A stretch of DNA of 64,000 nt from Candidatus Binatia bacterium (lineage in GTDB: Bacteria > Verrucomicrobiota > Verrucomicrobiia > Limisphaerales > UBA8199), in contig DATMQA010000007.1 of assembly GCA_035566895.1 (NCBI GenBank), positions 54,395 to 118,394 of the forward strand, read 5' to 3'. The notes beneath the pieces are model-generated. The model saw only the letters and a program-made list of their open reading frames with translations, made no database searches and was not told the origin of the DNA. Made by a program: the position numbers and the translations under genes. Positions 7,248 to 43,132 of this stretch are shown here, in pieces. Within the stretch, counting starts at the first letter, position 1. Each line of letters opens with the position of its first letter.

Positions 7248-7328
7248 TTGTTACAAGGTTACTAGGTTACATTGTCATAGTGGTACTTGTCCCTATGTAA
7301 CCATGTAACGTTGTAACTTTGTAACCAT
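7248..7328. repeat. inverted arrays of 8-bp-period GTTAC / GTAAC words forming a roughly 23-bp imperfect hairpin
   Basis: GTTAC at 7250, 7258 and 7266. GTAAC at 7297, 7305, 7313 and 7321. Arms 7250-7272 and 7295-7317 are complementary at 20 of 23 positions. Confidence 0.8.
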
Positions 7329-7340
7329 GGAACCTGTATT

Positions 7341-14561: not shown

Positions 14562-14687
14562 CTAGCCCAGCCGCCAGTTTGCTTCAGCAATGCTTTGCGA
14601 AGACCAACGCCAACAAAGGAAATTTCCACTGCTTCCTCTGGCCCAAAATTGTGGGAAATTCATACCCAAAAATCATAAATCCACCGG

Positions 14688-14739
14688 CCCTCTACTATGT
14701 ATGGTGCGACAGACCTTGTCCAACGGTGGACAAGCTGCT
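14688..14739 (+). repeat. 52-nt copy of the core motif of the 37.4-kb tandem units, with an internal hairpin
   Basis: CCCTCTACTATGTATGGTGCGACAGACCTTGTCCAACGGTGGACAAGCTGCT matches 37533-37584 at about 43 of 52 positions (hand count). It contains the hairpin TTGTCC-N6-GGACAA. Confidence 0.75.
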
Positions 14740-28369: not shown

Positions 28370-28556
28370 ATCCGGCGCTGATGATCCGTCAGGTCGTTAG
28401 GACCTCGGTAAACAGGGGTGATTTTGAGTTTTTGATCCGTCAGGTTATCCGTCATGTTATCCGTCAGCATCCGTCAGGACTCGGTAAACACGAGCGATTG
28501 TAAATCCGCAATCCGTCAGGACCCGGTAAACAGGGCTGTTTTTGATGTCCCAGGCA
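28370..28556 (+). repeat. modular repeat element, copy A (ATCCGTCAGG words plus three CGGTAAACA units, 14-nt terminal motif)
   Basis: ATCCGGCGCTGATG at 28370-28383. Five ATCCGTCAG words plus one ATCCGTCAT variant. Three units of the form word + CGGTAAACA + G-rich + T-run. It aligns with the reverse complement of 42581-42758 at about 75-80 percent identity by hand alignment. Confidence 0.85.
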
Positions 28557-34155: not shown

Positions 34156-37023
34156 TCAAGGAACCGCTTTCAGCCGGTAAAAGGTCTGCGCCGAACCCGC
34201 GGCCGTCCCGTCGGTCCAGTCTGTGACCCCCGTTGTATTCGCAACCTGGCCAAGAGAACTCCATTCGCCGAGAACGGTCGAGGCTTGCACTTCCAGGCGC
34301 AACCCAGGCGGGCCATGCAGCCGAAGGCGCGGCGCGCCATTCATCGGCGAGACGGGCGGCTCGATCCAAACGGAAGAAAGCGGGACTTCGCGCAGCCTGT
34401 AGAAACGAGCGCCGGAAGAGGCTCCCGCATCTACAAACGTCCGCAATACCGTCGGGTTCGCTATCACCGCCAGCGTGGACCACTCCCCCAGGTTCGTCGA
34501 AACCATCACCGCAAAGAGCCGGCCCGGCATCCCGTGGAGAATCAGCCCGCACTGCCCGTTCCCCGGCCGCCCATCCAACTCCAGCCAGCTTTGGACCGGC
34601 AGCGGCTGTTGCGACTCGGCATAGACGTAAACCCCGCGGTTGGTCAGCGCCTGGAGCAGGCTGAGGTTCGGCGACCCGAGGTTCAAACTCAAATAATTCC
34701 CATTGAGGTTCACGTACGAATTCGATACAACCGCCGGCAGGGTCGCAAGATCGGTAAGCAGATTCCCGCTCACATCGAGGACTTGGATATTTGTCAGGTT
34801 CGCTAGCGCAGAAAGGTTGCTCAGCCAATCGCTTGCCAGGCCAACGGATGAGAGCCGTTGAAGTCCAGCCAGCCCAGCCAGGCTCGAGAGCCGGCAACCA
34901 TTCATGGTCAGGGAGGTCAGATTGGTCAGGCCGGCCAGTCCGTCGCAGTTCGTTACCGGGTTGTCGGACACGTCCAGAGTGTAGAGTGACCACAACCCAC
35001 CCAGTGGACTCAAATCAGAGATGTGGTTTTGACTAAGATGCAGGTAATAGAGTTGGTGCAGTCCGGACAGGCAATCGGCGTTCGTCAGCGACGCCCCCTC
35101 CAGCATCAGCTCTGTCAGATTGGTAAGCTCGCTTAAGGGCGCACAGTTGCCGATGGGCACGAGAGTGAGGTTCAGGTAAGACAAGCTGGTCAAACCCGCT
35201 AGCGGCGAAATATCTCTCAAGGGAGTGCCGGTCAGGTTCAAGTTCTGGAGGCGAGTGAGGTTGCTCAATGCCGCTATATTCGTCACGGCCGTGTAATCGA
35301 GATCGAGCGAGAACAGATTGGTCATCGACGACAACCCCGCGCAATTGAAGATCGGATTCTGGGACAGGGTCAAGTAGTTCAGGTTCGTCAAACCGGATAA
35401 GGGCGTTAGGTCGCTGAGTTGGTCCCCGTACAGGCGCGCATAGTTCAACCGGCTCATTCCGGCGAGGCACGCCGCGTCCATGGTGCCGGCATTGTCCGCG
35501 ATCAGAGTCTGGAGATTCGTCAGGCCGCCCAGGCCGGAGCAGTTGGTGATGGTGTTTTGGCTTACCGTCAGAGAAGTCAGGCCGCCCAAACCGGCCAGTG
35601 GCCCGAGATCCCCGATGCGGTTTCCGTAAAGGTTAAGGCTGCTCAGTTGGGTTAACCCTGCGAGCCCAACGATGTTCGAGAGCAAGGTTGAATTAAGGCT
35701 CAGGTTCACCAGGTTCGTCAGCCCAGCCAGCGCCGCGCAAGTGCCAACGGGATTATCGTCGGCCATCAGCGTTTGCAGCAGCGTTGCTCCCGCCAGCGGA
35801 CCAAAGTCGCCTATGTTTTGACCCGATAAGCTCAAAGCCGTGAGTTGGCTCATGCCCGCCAGGCAGTCGATATTGGTAAGCGCCGGCACAGGCGGAGGTC
35901 CTCCTGGCCGAATGATGGTGGGAAAGGCGTAGGCGTGGGTCAGATCCAGGTTTGTCAGCCCGGTCATCCCAGCAAGCGCCGAACAATCTTGCAGGAGGTT
36001 CCCATTGAGGATGAGGTTCTGTAAATTCGTCATTCCCGCCAGGGGTGACACATCCCAGACTGCCCTCCCGGTCAGGTTCAGGGAAATGAGCCTGGTCAGC
36101 CCGGAAAGGCTCCCCAGCGCGAAAGCCTTCGAGGGGTCGGCTGATTGCGGGCCCAGCAGCACGGGGGCTCTGCCATACGCGTTCAAATTGAGGTCGCTCA
36201 GGTTGGTCAACCCCGCCAGGGGCGCGCAATTTGTAATCGCGCTCCCGGCCAGATTGAGCATTTCCAGGCGGAACAGCCCCGCCAGCGGGAAGAAGTTGGT
36301 TATTCCATTGTATCGCAGGTCTAGCCACCGCAGTTCGCCCAACGCGGCAATCCAATCGAGGTTCGTTATCTGACACCCACCGAGGCCGAGATTCGTCAGG
36401 TTGACCAGGTTGGCCAGGGCGGTGCCGGTTGTAATCGGATTGCCGCTAAGGTCCAGGGATTGCAAACGGCTCAACTGCTGGAGCGGAGCGACGTTGGTCA
36501 CCTCCGTGCCCGCGAGACCCAGGCGGACCAGCGCTTGCAGGTTTGACAGGCAACTCGGATCCTCCAAAGGGGCCGCACGACCGAAGCGGGGCAAAATCGG
36601 CAGGATCGGGTATCCTAAAAGCTGAGCACCATACGGGTCCTTCAGGTCCAAACTTGTCAGGTTTGTCAATCCCGACAACGGAGTGTAGTTCGTTGTCGCA
36701 TTTCCGCTGAGGTTCAGGTTCGTCAGCCCTGTCAGTCCCGTTAGTGGCGCAAGGTCCCCCGCCGAATCGTTGCTTAAGCTCAGGCTTCCCAGATTTCTTG
36801 CCCACTCCAAGCCGGACAAACTCCTGATCCCGAGATTCGAACCGTCCAGACCGGTCAATAGGTTCAGGTCATTCGTGGTGAGGACCCCGGTCGGCTTGTT
36901 CAGCGCCGCCCGGACCGCCGATTCAAGCCTCCCATCCGCAAACTGCACCTGCGCCTGCCCCAAAGCCGTGCCGGCCATCCCGGCCAGAAAAGACAAAACC
37001 AACACGCGGCTCAAAGTTTTCAT
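34156..37023 (-). CDS. secreted leucine-rich-repeat protein with two tandem C-terminal FYR-P modules
   Basis: Signal peptide, then about 30 LRR units (L.GLTNLT.L.L..N.I.D..PLAGL), then ...ARFYRLREVP and ...QTFYRLKAVP-stop. Confidence 0.85.
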   Translation of the reverse strand: MKTLSRVLVLSFLAGMAGTALGQAQVQFADGRLESAVRAALNKPTGVLTTNDLNLLTGLDGSNLGIRSLSGLEWARNLGSLSLSNDSAGDLAPLTGLTGLTNLNLSGNATTNYTPLSGLTNLTSLDLKDPYGAQLLGYPILPILPRFGRAAPLEDPSCLSNLQALVRLGLAGTEVTNVAPLQQLSRLQSLDLSGNPITTGTALANLVNLTNLGLGGCQITNLDWIAALGELRWLDLRYNGITNFFPLAGLFRLEMLNLAGSAITNCAPLAGLTNLSDLNLNAYGRAPVLLGPQSADPSKAFALGSLSGLTRLISLNLTGRAVWDVSPLAGMTNLQNLILNGNLLQDCSALAGMTGLTNLDLTHAYAFPTIIRPGGPPPVPALTNIDCLAGMSQLTALSLSGQNIGDFGPLAGATLLQTLMADDNPVGTCAALAGLTNLVNLSLNSTLLSNIVGLAGLTQLSSLNLYGNRIGDLGPLAGLGGLTSLTVSQNTITNCSGLGGLTNLQTLIADNAGTMDAACLAGMSRLNYARLYGDQLSDLTPLSGLTNLNYLTLSQNPIFNCAGLSSMTNLFSLDLDYTAVTNIAALSNLTRLQNLNLTGTPLRDISPLAGLTSLSYLNLTLVPIGNCAPLSELTNLTELMLEGASLTNADCLSGLHQLYYLHLSQNHISDLSPLGGLWSLYTLDVSDNPVTNCDGLAGLTNLTSLTMNGCRLSSLAGLAGLQRLSSVGLASDWLSNLSALANLTNIQVLDVSGNLLTDLATLPAVVSNSYVNLNGNYLSLNLGSPNLSLLQALTNRGVYVYAESQQPLPVQSWLELDGRPGNGQCGLILHGMPGRLFAVMVSTNLGEWSTLAVIANPTVLRTFVDAGASSGARFYRLREVPLSSVWIEPPVSPMNGAPRLRLHGPPGLRLEVQASTVLGEWSSLGQVANTTGVTDWTDGTAAGSAQTFYRLKAVP

Positions 37024-37353
37024 CCCAGATTAATCCTTCGTCATTGGCAGGCCGACATTATCAGCCTCACGAATTCAGTCAAGCAAGAACAACCAAACTC
37101 TGGACCCCTTCGTCCGGGAGCCGCAAAGTCCCGCCAGGGACGCTCGACCATAGCCCACCCGTTTTCAACGGTGGGTACCCATGCGCCCGAGGACCAAGTC
37201 CCTTCAGGGACGGCAGAGCGCCGAGAGATTGATGAGCGCCCCTTGAACGGAGCGAGCGAAAGCTTTCCTCGGCAGAATGCGGCGTTCAATTGGCGGAAGT
37301 TGACAACGGATGCTCTGGCCTTATTCGGCATGGGGGAGCGCGGGGTGCCGCTG

Positions 37354-37651
37354 AAAAAAAATTTAGGGTTAAAAAACGTTAAAAACCGCTAAAAAAGGTT
37401 AAAACCGCGATCGCGGCCATAATTTGGATAGGGCGGCGGCGAGGAGCAGGAAAGGTGACACGGGGGGCTGGGCTTTCATGTTTGCTTTGTACGGTTTTCT
37501 GTTATCCGGACCGGCCGCGGTTGGCGACACTGCCCTCTACTATGTATGGCGCGACAAAGGTTGTCTGACGGCGGACAAGGCGCTGGGCCGGGTCTTCCTT
37601 GAGGGGATGAGCGGTCCGGCGGCGTCTCGTGCTCGGAGTGAAATCGGCGCG
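37354..37651 (+). repeat. 297-bp tandem non-coding unit, copy 1
   Basis: A-run + ATTTAG + four GTTAAAA-type words, then a conserved core (GCGATCGCGGCCATAATTTGGAT...GGTGACACGGGGGGCTGGGCTTTCATGTTTGCTT...CCCTCTACTATGTATGG...GGACAAGGCGCT...GGTCCGGCGGCG). Confidence 0.85.
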
Positions 37652-37922
37652 AAAAAAATTTAGTGTTAAGAAGTGTTAAGGAGTGTTAAGAAATGTTAAG
37701 GCTGCGATCGCGGCCATAATTTGGATGGAGGCGGCGGCGAGGGGCAGGGAAGGTGACACGGGGGGCTGGGCTTTCATGTTTGCTTGTAAGGTTTTCTGTT
37801 ATCCGGGCCAGCCGCAGTTGGCGACACTGCCCTCTACTATGTATTGTGCGACGAAATGTGTCTGACGGCGGACAAGGCGCTGGTCCGGGTCTTCCTTGAG
37901 GACACTCAGCGGTCCGGCGGCG
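37652..37922 (+). repeat. 297-bp tandem non-coding unit, copy 2
   Basis: Same organisation with different words (four GTGTTAAG-type words). The core is highly similar to copy 1 but carries a 1-bp indel, so no reading frame is conserved. Confidence 0.85.
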
Positions 37923-38050
37923 CAAATGAGCCGTGTTGGGACAAGGTTCGGCGGCAGCACGCGACTGAGAAGGCTGCGGTCTCGGGAGATGAGATGCCCA
38001 AAATCTGGAGAGTGGGGGGTACGCGATGGTGCGGAGCACCTTCATTTGAA

Positions 38051-38100
38051 CTCGGATTTAGTCCGATTTAGTCCGATTTAGTCCGATTTACTCGGAATAG
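38051..38100 (+). repeat. decamer tandem array (GTCCGATTTA x3 perfect, plus two degenerate flanking units)
   Basis: CTCGGATTTA GTCCGATTTA GTCCGATTTA GTCCGATTTA CTCGGAATAG. It is followed by a GGGGTGACGGCCCGGGAGGGGG segment resembling the GGTGACACGGGGGGCTGGG core of the two upstream units. Confidence 0.85.
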
Positions 38101-38601
38101 GTCAGAGCGCGGGGAAAAGGGGTGACGGCCCGGGAGGGGGTGGGGGTGGGAGTACCCTCGTGGAGCCGGCACAGCGGCACAACCTGCATTTTACCGAGAG
38201 ATTTTTGAAGGCCGAGCCGGCACAAATGGCGGCACAACCCGTCACAACCCGGCACATTCTGGTCTCAAGCGGAAACAGGGGAACAGGCCGCAAAGGGGTA
38301 CCTGGAGGAGGATTTCCTGGACACGTTCCGGCGATATATTCCGAGGTCGGAAGTGGAGGCGCTAGAGGCGGACCTGGCGGAACGGACGTGATCCCCAAGC
38401 AGGAACATTATCTCAACCGAATGGCGCGTTCAGGATACTGCTCTACGTCACGCGTTGAGCAGTTGGCTGCTTAACTTCCGCCATACGCTCTGCGAAGGAG
38501 GATGGTAAATGGCACCTGGATATTCGACTCACTATTGATGTGGCGAGTCGCAGATCCAGGCCGGCTGCCGAATCAAGTCAGGATAAAAACTGAACGGCCT
38601 T

Positions 38602-39180
38602 ATGGGTGACCTCCTTTCTCCGTCAACCTTCAAACCTTCGGAAAGCTTGCCTACTTCAGAGTCCAGCCTTATTCTGGCTACTGTGCACGCAAAAGATCCG
38701 ACACAGGCCGAGTTCCGGAAAGCGGTCGCGCGGTTCGGGAACCCTTACAGGTTCGTTGAGCTCGATGAAGACGGTTTCAACCCTCAACCGCCGACGTTGG
38801 AACAACAACGTGCCTACCTTCGAAAACTTGAAGACCCATACGCCTTCCACGGCATCTTCGACTTCGAAGACGGACAAGCTCAGCCGACTTGTGCTCAATC
38901 CACTCCCGCTGATAAGACAGTCCCCACAACCAGGCTGCGAGCCTCCCTCGATGAAGTTCTGAACGCCTACAAGCCCTACATTGCTCGCTCAGAATGGAAA
39001 AAAGTTACTGACTACAGACCCGAGTTTCTCTTTGAAGCCCAGCGCGACCCTGCTCGCGCGGCACTGATCCTGCATAAGCTTGAGCAACTCAAATTCAGCC
39101 TGATGCCGGGTGAAAAGGTGGAGTTTAATCGTGCTCCTGCGGAGCGAATCGTTAGCCAGCTTAAGAAACTTCTCCGCTGA
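38602..39180 (+). CDS. hypothetical protein (no recognisable domain), upstream partner of the ImmA/IrrE protease
   Basis: 192-aa ORF located 5 nt upstream of the next gene. No HTH is evident. Confidence 0.55.
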   Translation: MGDLLSPSTFKPSESLPTSESSLILATVHAKDPTQAEFRKAVARFGNPYRFVELDEDGFNPQPPTLEQQRAYLRKLEDPYAFHGIFDFEDGQAQPTCAQSTPADKTVPTTRLRASLDEVLNAYKPYIARSEWKKVTDYRPEFLFEAQRDPARAALILHKLEQLKFSLMPGEKVEFNRAPAERIVSQLKKLLR

Positions 39181-39185
39181 GGCCC

Positions 39186-40073
39186 ATGGCACGTGTTGCA
39201 AACGCCGCTCTTTTCCGGGCGCTCTCAAGACAGGCGGAAGAGCTCGGCCGCAGAGCGGGCGGGAACCAGCTACCTGTCCGCTTGCGTCCTTTGGCAGAAA
39301 AGCGCCGAATCACATCCGTCGAGTTCCAGCCCCTCTTGGTTGATGCAATGCTCACGACCCATCCAGGTGGGTTCCGGGTTTTCTTCAGCTCCGATGGCCG
39401 CGATCCGGAGGAACTTAAGCGGAAATACCACTCTGAGGAGAGCAACGGCCTTTTGCCTACCAGGCTGCGGTTTTCGTTCGCTCACGAGCTTGCGCACACC
39501 CTGTTTTACGATCTGGCACAACCAACACCCGAACTCGCCAAACGGTTCAGAGCTGGAGGGGGGAAGAACGAGCTCGAAAACCTCGAGACAAGTTGCAACC
39601 GACTCGCCGCCAAGCTGCTCCTGCCCGCCGCCCTCGTCCGAAATGAGTTAGGAAAGGCCAAGGTCCTCACCGCGGAATTCCTAACTGCGCTCGCCCAAAA
39701 GGCTGGTGTCTCCATTGAAGCCCTCATCAGGAGGCTCAACGAGCAGGACCAGCTTCTGGTCGCCCCATTTTTCCCTATCTGCATTCTCCTGCTCGATGGA
39801 GAGGATGGATGTTTCCGTGTCAAAGCACTGGCTACATGTCCAGGCTTCCGTCTCGCCGAGCGCCTTCTTAAAATTAAGCAAGGACAGGCATGGGAGCTGA
39901 ATGATGCCGACGGGCACTCGATTGAAGCTGGTTGCATTACATCTCGAGAAGTGGCCTTTCCAGCCGACTCATCACGCCGCAGCAAGCGTTTGCGTTACCG
40001 GTATACCCAAGCACCAACCGGGCGGGGAGCACGGTCGTTTATAATGACCTTCGAAGAAATCTTGCCGACCTAG
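39186..40073 (+). CDS. ImmA/IrrE family (COG2856) zinc metallopeptidase
   Basis: FAHELAHTLFYD (HEXXH) followed by E.SCNRLAAKLLLPAALV, the typical ImmA second motif. It has an additional C-terminal domain of about 130 aa. Confidence 0.75.
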   Translation: MARVANAALFRALSRQAEELGRRAGGNQLPVRLRPLAEKRRITSVEFQPLLVDAMLTTHPGGFRVFFSSDGRDPEELKRKYHSEESNGLLPTRLRFSFAHELAHTLFYDLAQPTPELAKRFRAGGGKNELENLETSCNRLAAKLLLPAALVRNELGKAKVLTAEFLTALAQKAGVSIEALIRRLNEQDQLLVAPFFPICILLLDGEDGCFRVKALATCPGFRLAERLLKIKQGQAWELNDADGHSIEAGCITSREVAFPADSSRRSKRLRYRYTQAPTGRGARSFIMTFEEILPT

Positions 40074-42568: not shown

Positions 42569-42758
42569 ATCCGGCGCTGATGCCTCGGACATCAAAAACA
42601 GCCCGTGTTTACCGAGCTTGTAACGACCTGCACATTCAAGATCCCTCGTGTTTACCGAGCTTGTAACGACTGTAACGGATCGTTACGGATAGTGTAACGG
42701 ATAAAAAGCGCAAAAATCGCCCGTGTTTACCGATGTTGTAACGACGTAACGGATCAAA
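42569..42758 (-). repeat. modular repeat element, copy B (ATCCGTTAC / GTCGTTACAA words plus three CGGTAAACA units)
   Basis: The reverse complement aligns with copy A over about 180 bp. The same 14-mer ATCCGGCGCTGATG is at 42569-42582. Confidence 0.85.
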
Positions 42759-43008: not shown

Positions 43009-43057
43009 GACTGTGGACTGTGGACTGTGGACTGTGGACTGTGGACTTTGGACTGTG
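43009..43057 (+). repeat. heptanucleotide tandem repeat (GACTGTG)x7, with the sixth unit GACTTTG
   Basis: Read directly from the sequence. It ends 75 nt upstream of ATG 43133. Confidence 0.95.
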
Positions 43058-43132
43058 GCCGGCCCCCAGGCTTGCGCTTTCCTAGCCCCTGGTTCAAAGT
43101 CAATTTCCATTGTTGAAAGGGTGTGCCTGAAT

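Follow-up and report, generated by a model that had tools for sequence, protein, structure and literature searches.

REP/BIME repeats, usually present as hundreds of copies of a short imperfect palindromic unit, are mobilised by RAYT (Y1 HUH) transposases, and the BOX elements of Streptococcus pneumoniae have mutually complementary ends that fold into a long stem-loop. BOX modules are arranged as boxA-boxB(n)-boxC, and the elements cluster with RUP and SPRITE repeats (PMC10969869). BrickBuilt of Porphyromonas gingivalis consists of a leader, a spacerless tandem array of 23-nt subunits and a tail; its ~19 strictly intergenic copies per genome have small inverted-repeat ends and a variable repeat number, were shown to carry promoters and have a narrow host range (PMC4596501). 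The cyanobacterial STRR and other long simple-sequence repeats are built from 7–10-nt units (PMC4692102). Here we describe a new family of an already known kind, the patchwork repeats of bacterial gene spacers, which we followed from a stretch of 64,000 nucleotides (the window; GenBank assembly GCA_035566895.1, contig DATMQA010000007.1, positions 54,395 to 118,394) of the genome labelled Candidatus Binatia bacterium. The element is a non-coding mosaic of separable modules, ~230–300 bp in length, and two of its copies stand at 37354–37922 of the window. We lean, if only slightly, towards reading these two units as head-to-tail copies of a DNA-level mosaic interspersed repeat, locally duplicated and with its modules reshuffled by recombination.

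The pair lies in 1.6 kb of non-coding DNA between two divergent genes, one ending at 37023 (minus strand, a 955-aa leucine-rich-repeat protein) and the next starting at 38602. Tandem Repeats Finder (TRF) reports a period of 297 at 37355–37922 (1.9 copies, 87% matches, 1% indels, score 901), which bears out the tandem 297-bp units described in a sequence-only reading of the window, as well as their opening, an A-run with TTTAG and then four words of 10 bp. The same program finds the word arrays at 37368–37404 (GTTAAAAAAC type) and 37662–37700 (AGTGTTAAGA type), each also as two 20-bp units. The alignment of the two units contains the 1-bp indel already pointed out in that reading (GCTTTGTACGG versus GCTT-GTAAGG) together with a second one (GGATAG-GGCGG versus GGATGGAGGCGG), and the open reading frames (ORFs) are indeed unlike between the units. 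The tandem period spans 5' module to 3' module, and the unit boundaries, first placed from A-run to A-run, are better drawn in this way. The features of the pair are the following.

37354–37366, plus strand: unit 1, A8 run and TTTAG, the 5' landmark of the element (direct reading; conserved in nearly all full-length copies, three genomes).
37367–37404, plus strand: unit 1, word array of four decamers of GTTAAAAAAC type with a 20-bp super-period (TRF, period 10 × 3.7 and period 20 × 2.0).
37405–37416, plus strand: unit 1, palindrome CCGCGATCGCGG, with the family consensus CCGCGATAGCGG (sequence and alignment).
37417–37472, plus strand: unit 1, GC-rich variable segment (GGCGGCGGCGAGGAGC...GGTGACACGGGGGGCTGGG), the site of the optional insert in other copies (20-copy alignment, short and long forms).
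37473–37550, plus strand: unit 1, conserved core (CTTTCATGTTTGC ... GTTGGCGACACTGCCCTCTACTATGTATGG), the best-conserved block between genera (85–91% identity).
37551–37579, plus strand: unit 1, invariant 3' module, GCGAC-N7-GTCTGACGGCGGACAAG, with the short palindrome TTGTCT-GACGGC-GGACAA inside it (in every copy, 5'-truncated ones included).
37580–37608, plus strand: unit 1, 3' extension (GCGCTGGGCCGGG...), common to some copies of the own genome only (flank alignment).
37609–37651, plus strand: unit 2, optional 5' module (GAGCGGTCCGGCGGCGTCTCGTGCTCGGAGTGAAATCGG) (flank alignment).
37652–37663, plus strand: unit 2, A7 run and TTTAG (direct reading).
37664–37701, plus strand: unit 2, word array of four decamers of GTGTTAAGRA type (TRF, period 10 × 3.9 and period 20 × 2.0).
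37702–37713, plus strand: unit 2, palindrome CTGCGATCGCGG (sequence).
37771–37847, plus strand: unit 2, conserved core (alignment and core tree).
37848–37876, plus strand: unit 2, invariant 3' module (sequence and module pattern scan).
37907–37922, plus strand: stub of one more 5' module (CAGCGGTCCGGCGGCG), the point at which the tandem stops (sequence and alignments).

Small, non-coding, multi-copy and mostly intergenic, the copies of the element follow one order of modules along the plus strand of the window: optional 5' module, A-run, words, palindrome, optional insert, core and 3' end. The 5' module (GAGCGGCCCGGCGGCGTCTCGTGG..GGAGTGAAATCGG) is present in 7 of the 11 copies of the own genome that were aligned with their flanks; in a relative from another genus, G018, it has a different sequence and most copies are without it. 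It is followed by A7–9 with TT(T)AG, by two to five words of 10 bp with a GTTAA core, by the palindrome CCGCGATAGCGG and by GTGGAYGG..GGCGGCGGCGAGGA. The GC-rich insert of 40–60 nt that comes next is optional and is found in some copies of both genera. The core (CTTTCATGTTTGC-TTGTACGGTTTTCTGTTTTCCGGGCCGGTCGCGGTTGGCGACAGTGGCCTCTACTATGTATKGYGCGAC) leads into seven variable bases and then GTCTGACGGCGGACA(A/G)G, and the invariant 3' end of the element thus reads GCGAC-N7-GTCTGACGGCGGACA. Beyond this end the similarity between copies of the own genome extends for 15–35 nt in some of them and then ends.

The 6.5-Mb assembly of the own genome (G000, 227 contigs) gives 28 BLAST matches to the core of unit 1, and a profile built from nine copies gives 25 nhmmer matches, ~12 of them near full length and the rest fragments. 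Copies are found on C7, C8 (two), C37 (two), C88 (three), C91, C22, C69, C65, C146, C56, C14 and C1, with tandem copies on C7, C8, C37 and C88. The search for additional homologs, proposed along with the sequence-only reading, therefore turned up many, both in this genome and in relatives. Among 40 related genomes the family occurs in two, G018 (at least 14 matches) and G022 (one divergent match), which represent other genera of the same taxonomic family as G000; the other 38 contain no copy. When one genome per species was scanned for the pattern, the only find apart from chance 19-mer matches was G018. In metagenomes the matching contigs belonged to the same two organisms and came from the same soil samples, with four to five further copies besides; the metagenomes Ga0210408 and Ga0210409 contain both carriers. 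No match was found on viral contigs or plasmids in the collections searched. We also scanned 400 other genomes of the order for the 3' module, allowing up to 2 mismatches and using the reversed pattern as a control: against 20 matches in the own genome at this threshold, 36 of the 400 have single or paired matches, nearly all with 2 mismatches, which is only somewhat above the control. The family itself is absent from these 400 genomes. Core identity between the genera is 85–91%, while their flanking proteins are ~45–75% identical. Such conservation points to constraint, or else to a recent exchange between the two organisms, which share a soil. G018 is the GenBank metagenome-assembled genome DATMRF01, labelled 'Candidatus Acidoferrum sp.' (an Acidobacteria name) yet placed in the same family as G000, so that the GenBank label looks wrong.

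The two window units come out as sisters in a tree built from the 3' core, and this kinship, closer than to any other copy, indicates a local duplication. Their word arrays nevertheless differ, being of A-type in unit 1 and of AAG-type in unit 2. The A-type arrays of the C69 and C65 copies are identical to each other and ~2 positions off that of unit 1, with C37 near-identical; the odd third word CCGCTAAAAAA is present throughout, and yet core identity among these copies is just 80–88%. The array of unit 2 is that of a C88 copy with two words permuted, and all G018 copies carry GTGTTAAG(C/G)A words, the same array type as unit 2. The words were initially taken to be unit-specific, but every word type contains GTTAA or GTTAT and each array type recurs nearly unchanged elsewhere. 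At one orthologous locus (C69 in G000, C10 in G018) the flanks are conserved on both sides and the element is kept in both genomes, with four A-type words in the former versus two AAG-type words in the latter. Since the arrays are nearly unchanged between diverged cores and yet differ at an orthologous locus, they are transferred between copies as cassettes, through recombination or gene conversion, and the scaffold stays in place. The orthologous locus also has a conserved non-coding stretch directly 3' of the element (C69:61225–61340; L040, which is G018 C10; L109), found in three organisms and reading GGGGTTGACCGC...GGGTGCTTACCC...GCTCGTTCCTCGC...CAATCCCTTCGGGATTG. In L109 a ~21-nt segment of it (GGTAGCTCGTTCCTCGCAACC) is inverted between short inverted repeats, and part of the C69 stretch recurs on C182 and C119.

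BrickBuilt and BOX are the nearest known kinds. BrickBuilt likewise has a leader, variable internal tandem subunits and a tail, corresponding here to the A-run, the two to five words and the core with the 3' module, and its copies, ~19 per genome, are intergenic and of narrow host range like those of the element. In contrast to BrickBuilt, the words of the element are 10 nt long (with a 20-nt super-period), there are no terminal inverted repeats and no recognisable promoter, and the two share no sequence similarity. BOX resembles the element in being modular, intergenic and mosaic with a variable number of middle subunits, and in adjoining other repeats, which in our case are an Acido-Lenti-1-like repeat and a second dispersed family at 37995–38275. 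The element differs from BOX in lacking both excess folding and complementary ends, and from BOX and BrickBuilt alike in having no recognisable promoters and in its exchangeable decamer cassette. The cyanobacterial STRR resemble this genome in their short-unit arrays of a few recurrent words at many intergenic sites, but they are bare arrays, whereas here the array is a module within a longer conserved element.

How would such an element work and multiply? On the mosaic-repeat reading that we favour it would act and spread at the DNA level. Proteins would recognise the small palindromes and the invariant 3' end (GCGAC-N7-GTC-TGACGGCG-GAC), and the GTTAA words, being in 10-bp phase, would form a multi-site docking or bending array; for the 3' end and the phased words the sequence makes such a role as recognition sites probable. 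Copies would multiply by local duplication and by recombination between copies, perhaps with trans-mobilisation from the 3' end by a putative recombinase. The 5'-truncated copies, 27 to ~120 nt in length, all retain GCGAC-N7-GTCTGACGGCGGACA with a variable loss on the 5' side. The minimal ones (27–43 nt) contain the palindrome, and the genome has 16 exact GTCTGACGGCGGAC sites. One of the truncated copies, on C88, abuts a full copy and begins right at the latter's closing GGACAT.

Several results weigh against this account. Terminal inverted repeats do not rise above shuffles: with the first and last ~50 nt of six copies that have the 5' module, 12–98 of 100 shuffles were as good. Neither the flank alignment nor the flank listing contains target-site duplications or other flanking direct repeats. 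No empty site was found either, as the left and right flanks of G018 and G022 copies map to different contigs of the own genome and the sole usable synteny is at the C69 locus, which is occupied by the element in either genome; mobility is therefore unproven, synteny with the other carrier genomes being too poor. No partner enzyme was identified among the Y1 and Y2 transposase genes examined. Y1 (IS200/RAYT-type) genes are present in 39 of the 41 relatives, carriers and non-carriers alike, and a distribution so near to ubiquitous is uninformative. Y2 (IS91-type) genes are present in the own genome, with none in G018 and its at least 14 copies. Finally, the core identity of 85–91% and the persistence at the orthologous locus suggest purifying selection and thus, to judge from these sequences, a host function over mere selfish spread.

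The candidate mobile-element classes were rejected one after another. A MITE with terminal inverted repeats and target duplications is contradicted by the absence of both, and an IS91-type origin by the phyletic pattern, G018 being a carrier without a Y2_Tnp match. REP/BIME and the palindrome-associated elements derived from IS200/IS605 share with our element the lack of terminal inverted repeats and of target duplications, a short imperfect palindrome by one invariant end and Y1 genes in all carrier genomes. Unlike REP/BIME, the element has only ~25 copies and its two ends are without similar hairpins. Of the two Y1 genes in the own genome, the one inspected (Y1_Tnp, on C198) is flanked not by the element's motif but by other hairpins with the core CCGTTTCAACGG, which belongs to the Acido-Lenti-1-like repeat; as non-carriers have Y1 genes equally, we rejected a RAYT/REP link. 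In a comparison restricted to the Y1 and Y2 families, no contig bearing Y2 genes or the listed Y1 gene had an nhmmer match to the element. There is also no match to a known IS or MITE end, so that the assignment to an unclassified repeat in the sequence-only reading is not overturned from that side.

An alternative, which we regard as rather unlikely, is that the copies are cis-acting platforms of the host for protein binding, the GTTAA decamers and palindromes being operator or architectural sites kept by selection. A nucleoid-associated or ring-forming regulator would be an example of the protein, and the copies would organise or regulate the neighbouring DNA. The strict 10-bp phasing of words with a conserved GTTAA core, the several short palindromes, arrays that are more uniform than the cores, and the high conservation of core and 3' module between genera and at the orthologous locus all fit this proposal. 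The gene context does not. Neighbouring genes, called with a crude codon-usage gene caller, are functionally unrelated; about half of the copies have a gene start on their 5' side and the others a gene end, with the same split on the 3' side; distances to genes range from 2 to 2,000 bp, with copies in either orientation and in every kind of spacer. Two copies, nearly complete on C88 and fragmentary on C221, even lie between convergent genes. Moreover, the type and number of words vary freely at the orthologous site, the family is confined to two or three genera and no partner protein was found.

A more elaborate and improbable version can be imagined, in which the element would be a portable docking site with an exchangeable 'address': one protein would bind the scaffold of palindromes and invariant 3' module, while sequence-specific partners able to replace one another would bind the decamer cassette. 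If this were true, the swap of a whole array, as seen between the sister copies and at the orthologous locus, would give the site a new address. A scaffold with swappable words is also the design of the second and third repeat families in the window, and the docking-site proposal, again if true, could point to a general, undescribed system of these Verrucomicrobia that writes, copies or reads intergenic word arrays.

That the units encode a structured RNA or a family of small RNA (sRNA) genes, with one strand of the core transcribed, seems to us distinctly improbable. The layout would suit it, since many sRNA families are also multi-copy, sometimes tandem, intergenic and independent of orientation with a conserved core, and the consensus fold of the plus strand has an energy of −9.7, lower than all 100 column shuffles (minimum −9.2). 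One copy is split by an ORF-less group II intron of ~770 nt on the opposite strand (C146:51390–52163, between ...TAGTAGAGGTC and CACTGTCGCC; recognised by Rfam D1-D4-7 and domain V/VI matches), which would fit transcription of that strand. The folding energy of unit 1 itself, however, does not depart from dinucleotide shuffles (z = −0.46 on the plus strand and +0.17 on the minus strand), and the consensus fold of 20–25 copies is weak, with two or three small hairpins of 3–6 bp in common. In the 25-copy alignment no pair is changed on both sides: the 3' hairpin, whose pairing had been thought to be retained, has single-sided changes only. For the other proposed pairing, CCGGRCC with GGTCCGG, the partner lies in the optional 5' module, which is missing from most copies of the second genus. 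The window has no Rfam family at gathering score, a permissive Rfam scan (E ≤ 10, 36900–38700) gave nothing overlapping the units, and at 20 related loci only the group II intron and Acido-Lenti-1 were found, both adjoining the element and neither overlapping any copy. No sigma-70-type promoter was found in the copies, terminator-like sites are no more frequent than in shuffles, and the middle segment is large and prone to indels. The TGGCAC-like stretch, which is absent from short-form copies, contains by eye no correctly spaced sigma-54 (GG-N10-GC) or ECF-type motif. Thus, from the first description as a 'structured RNA or unclassified repeat' the second part stands, while the structured RNA was rejected, there being no Rfam match, fold z-scores near 0 and no compensatory pairs. 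We also rejected an association of the family with group II introns, as this was a single event with no other link.

Equally doubtful is the notion that the copies are relic attachment or recombination sites of integrative elements, with TTGTCT-GACGGC-GGACAA as the core site of a recombinase and the word array as arm-type sites ~190 bp away. The att arms of heterobivalent integrases combine direct repeats with an inverted-repeat core, a layout to which the element bears some resemblance by analogy. Similarity between copies stops at or shortly past the palindrome, and one related metagenome contig shares with C1 an 800-bp block that ends where the element's 3' end does. Against this, there are no adjoining integrase or cargo genes, host genes starting 24–330 bp from the 5' side; the 5' boundary is sharp too, leaving a unit of only ~250 bp; and the viral contigs and plasmids searched gave no match. 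Tandem reverse-strand genes for a small protein or type I toxin, comparable to the LDR loci of Escherichia coli, are scarcely credible and were rejected, since the ATG-led frame seen in most copies (starting ATGAAA, ATGAAAGCC..., 25–45 codons, stopped in the word array, which provides TAA in all three frames) shifts between copies, ends in at least three different C-termini, has its middle in the indel-prone segment, shows by eye no Shine-Dalgarno-like motif and differs between the two window units.

Returning to the mosaic repeat, we note that its decamer module is one case of a property of the whole genome. TRF run over the assembly (non-overlapping arrays with at least 2.8 copies) gives 1,175 short arrays, among them 481 of period 7, 137 of period 8, 138 of period 9 and 188 of period 10. 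Some words recur at dozens of loci (AAACGTG in 61 arrays, AAAGTCC in 43 and AAAAATC in 34). Most arrays are intergenic (~70–95% of those of period 8–10, depending on the period). Across tandem, divergent and convergent spacers, array numbers roughly follow spacer length. Examples in the window are found at 7250–7338, 28435–28478, 38055–38090, 42671–42703 and 43009–43058. These arrays resemble the cyanobacterial STRR and appear to be undescribed for this bacterial group. Taken alone, the element is one more family of bacterial interspersed repeats, from an uncultured soil organism. The exchange of cassettes together with more than 1,000 arrays makes this group of Verrucomicrobia suited to asking about the origin of such arrays and their possible reading by proteins, a question still open for the cyanobacterial STRR and similar repeats.

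Two further features of the window belong beside the pair.

14687–14739, plus strand: 5'-truncated copy of the family, 3' end only, elsewhere in the window (BLAST/nhmmer match C7:69081–69133).
37995–38275, plus strand: copy of a second dispersed family, outside the family described here, with its own word array at 38055–38090 (alignment and whole-genome BLAST).

The latter follows unit 2 and takes the place of the degenerate third unit that had been suggested from ~38044, a segment which aligns with units 1 and 2 at chance level. The second family has ~10 copies in the genome (whole-genome BLAST); its array of 10–11-bp words varies by copy (CGGATTTAGT, CGGAATAACT, CGGATTAAGT or GGTGCTACAAA), and the conserved core after it is rich in CCG[G/T]CACA words. 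The likeness in design to elements at 28.4 and 42.6 kb, remarked on in the sequence-only reading, is real: these are members of a third dispersed family (28370–28556 and 42569–42758, an inverted pair with a CCGTCAGG/CCGTTACA word swap), which is found on ~13 contigs, often with several copies together. As they belong to a dispersed family, there is no need to take the inverted pair for the termini of a 14-kb mobile segment.

Upstream of unit 1 the permissive Rfam scan found a weak Acido-Lenti-1 match (37127–37175, minus strand, E = 0.005). Both C8 copies, like the pair in the window, have an Acido-Lenti-1-like repeat on the opposite strand, 100–180 nt off the 5' side of the element. This repeat occurs at six to seven places in the genome (including C8:48893–48939, C8:49562–49608, C72, C167 and C69), two of which pass the gathering score. 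Its hairpin core is found on both sides of the Y1 (RAYT-like) transposase gene on C198, and the Acido-Lenti-1 Rfam motif may in this genome be a REP-type DNA repeat rather than an RNA.

The unit pair had been placed upstream of an ImmA gene pair, with a decamer array bracketing the ImmA module. That array belongs to the second family, and copies of the element occur in every kind of spacer and in either orientation; in the absence of any rule of orientation or distance to genes, the element is no leader or operator of the ImmA-type pair. For annotation this means that the element should not be described as such a leader and that ORFs called over it are spurious. The ImmA/IrrE-type ORF at 39186–40073 is a Peptidase_M78 match. 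Its codon usage falls below the threshold for the genome while the neighbouring genes are above it, and this low score hints at an atypical composition or a foreign origin.

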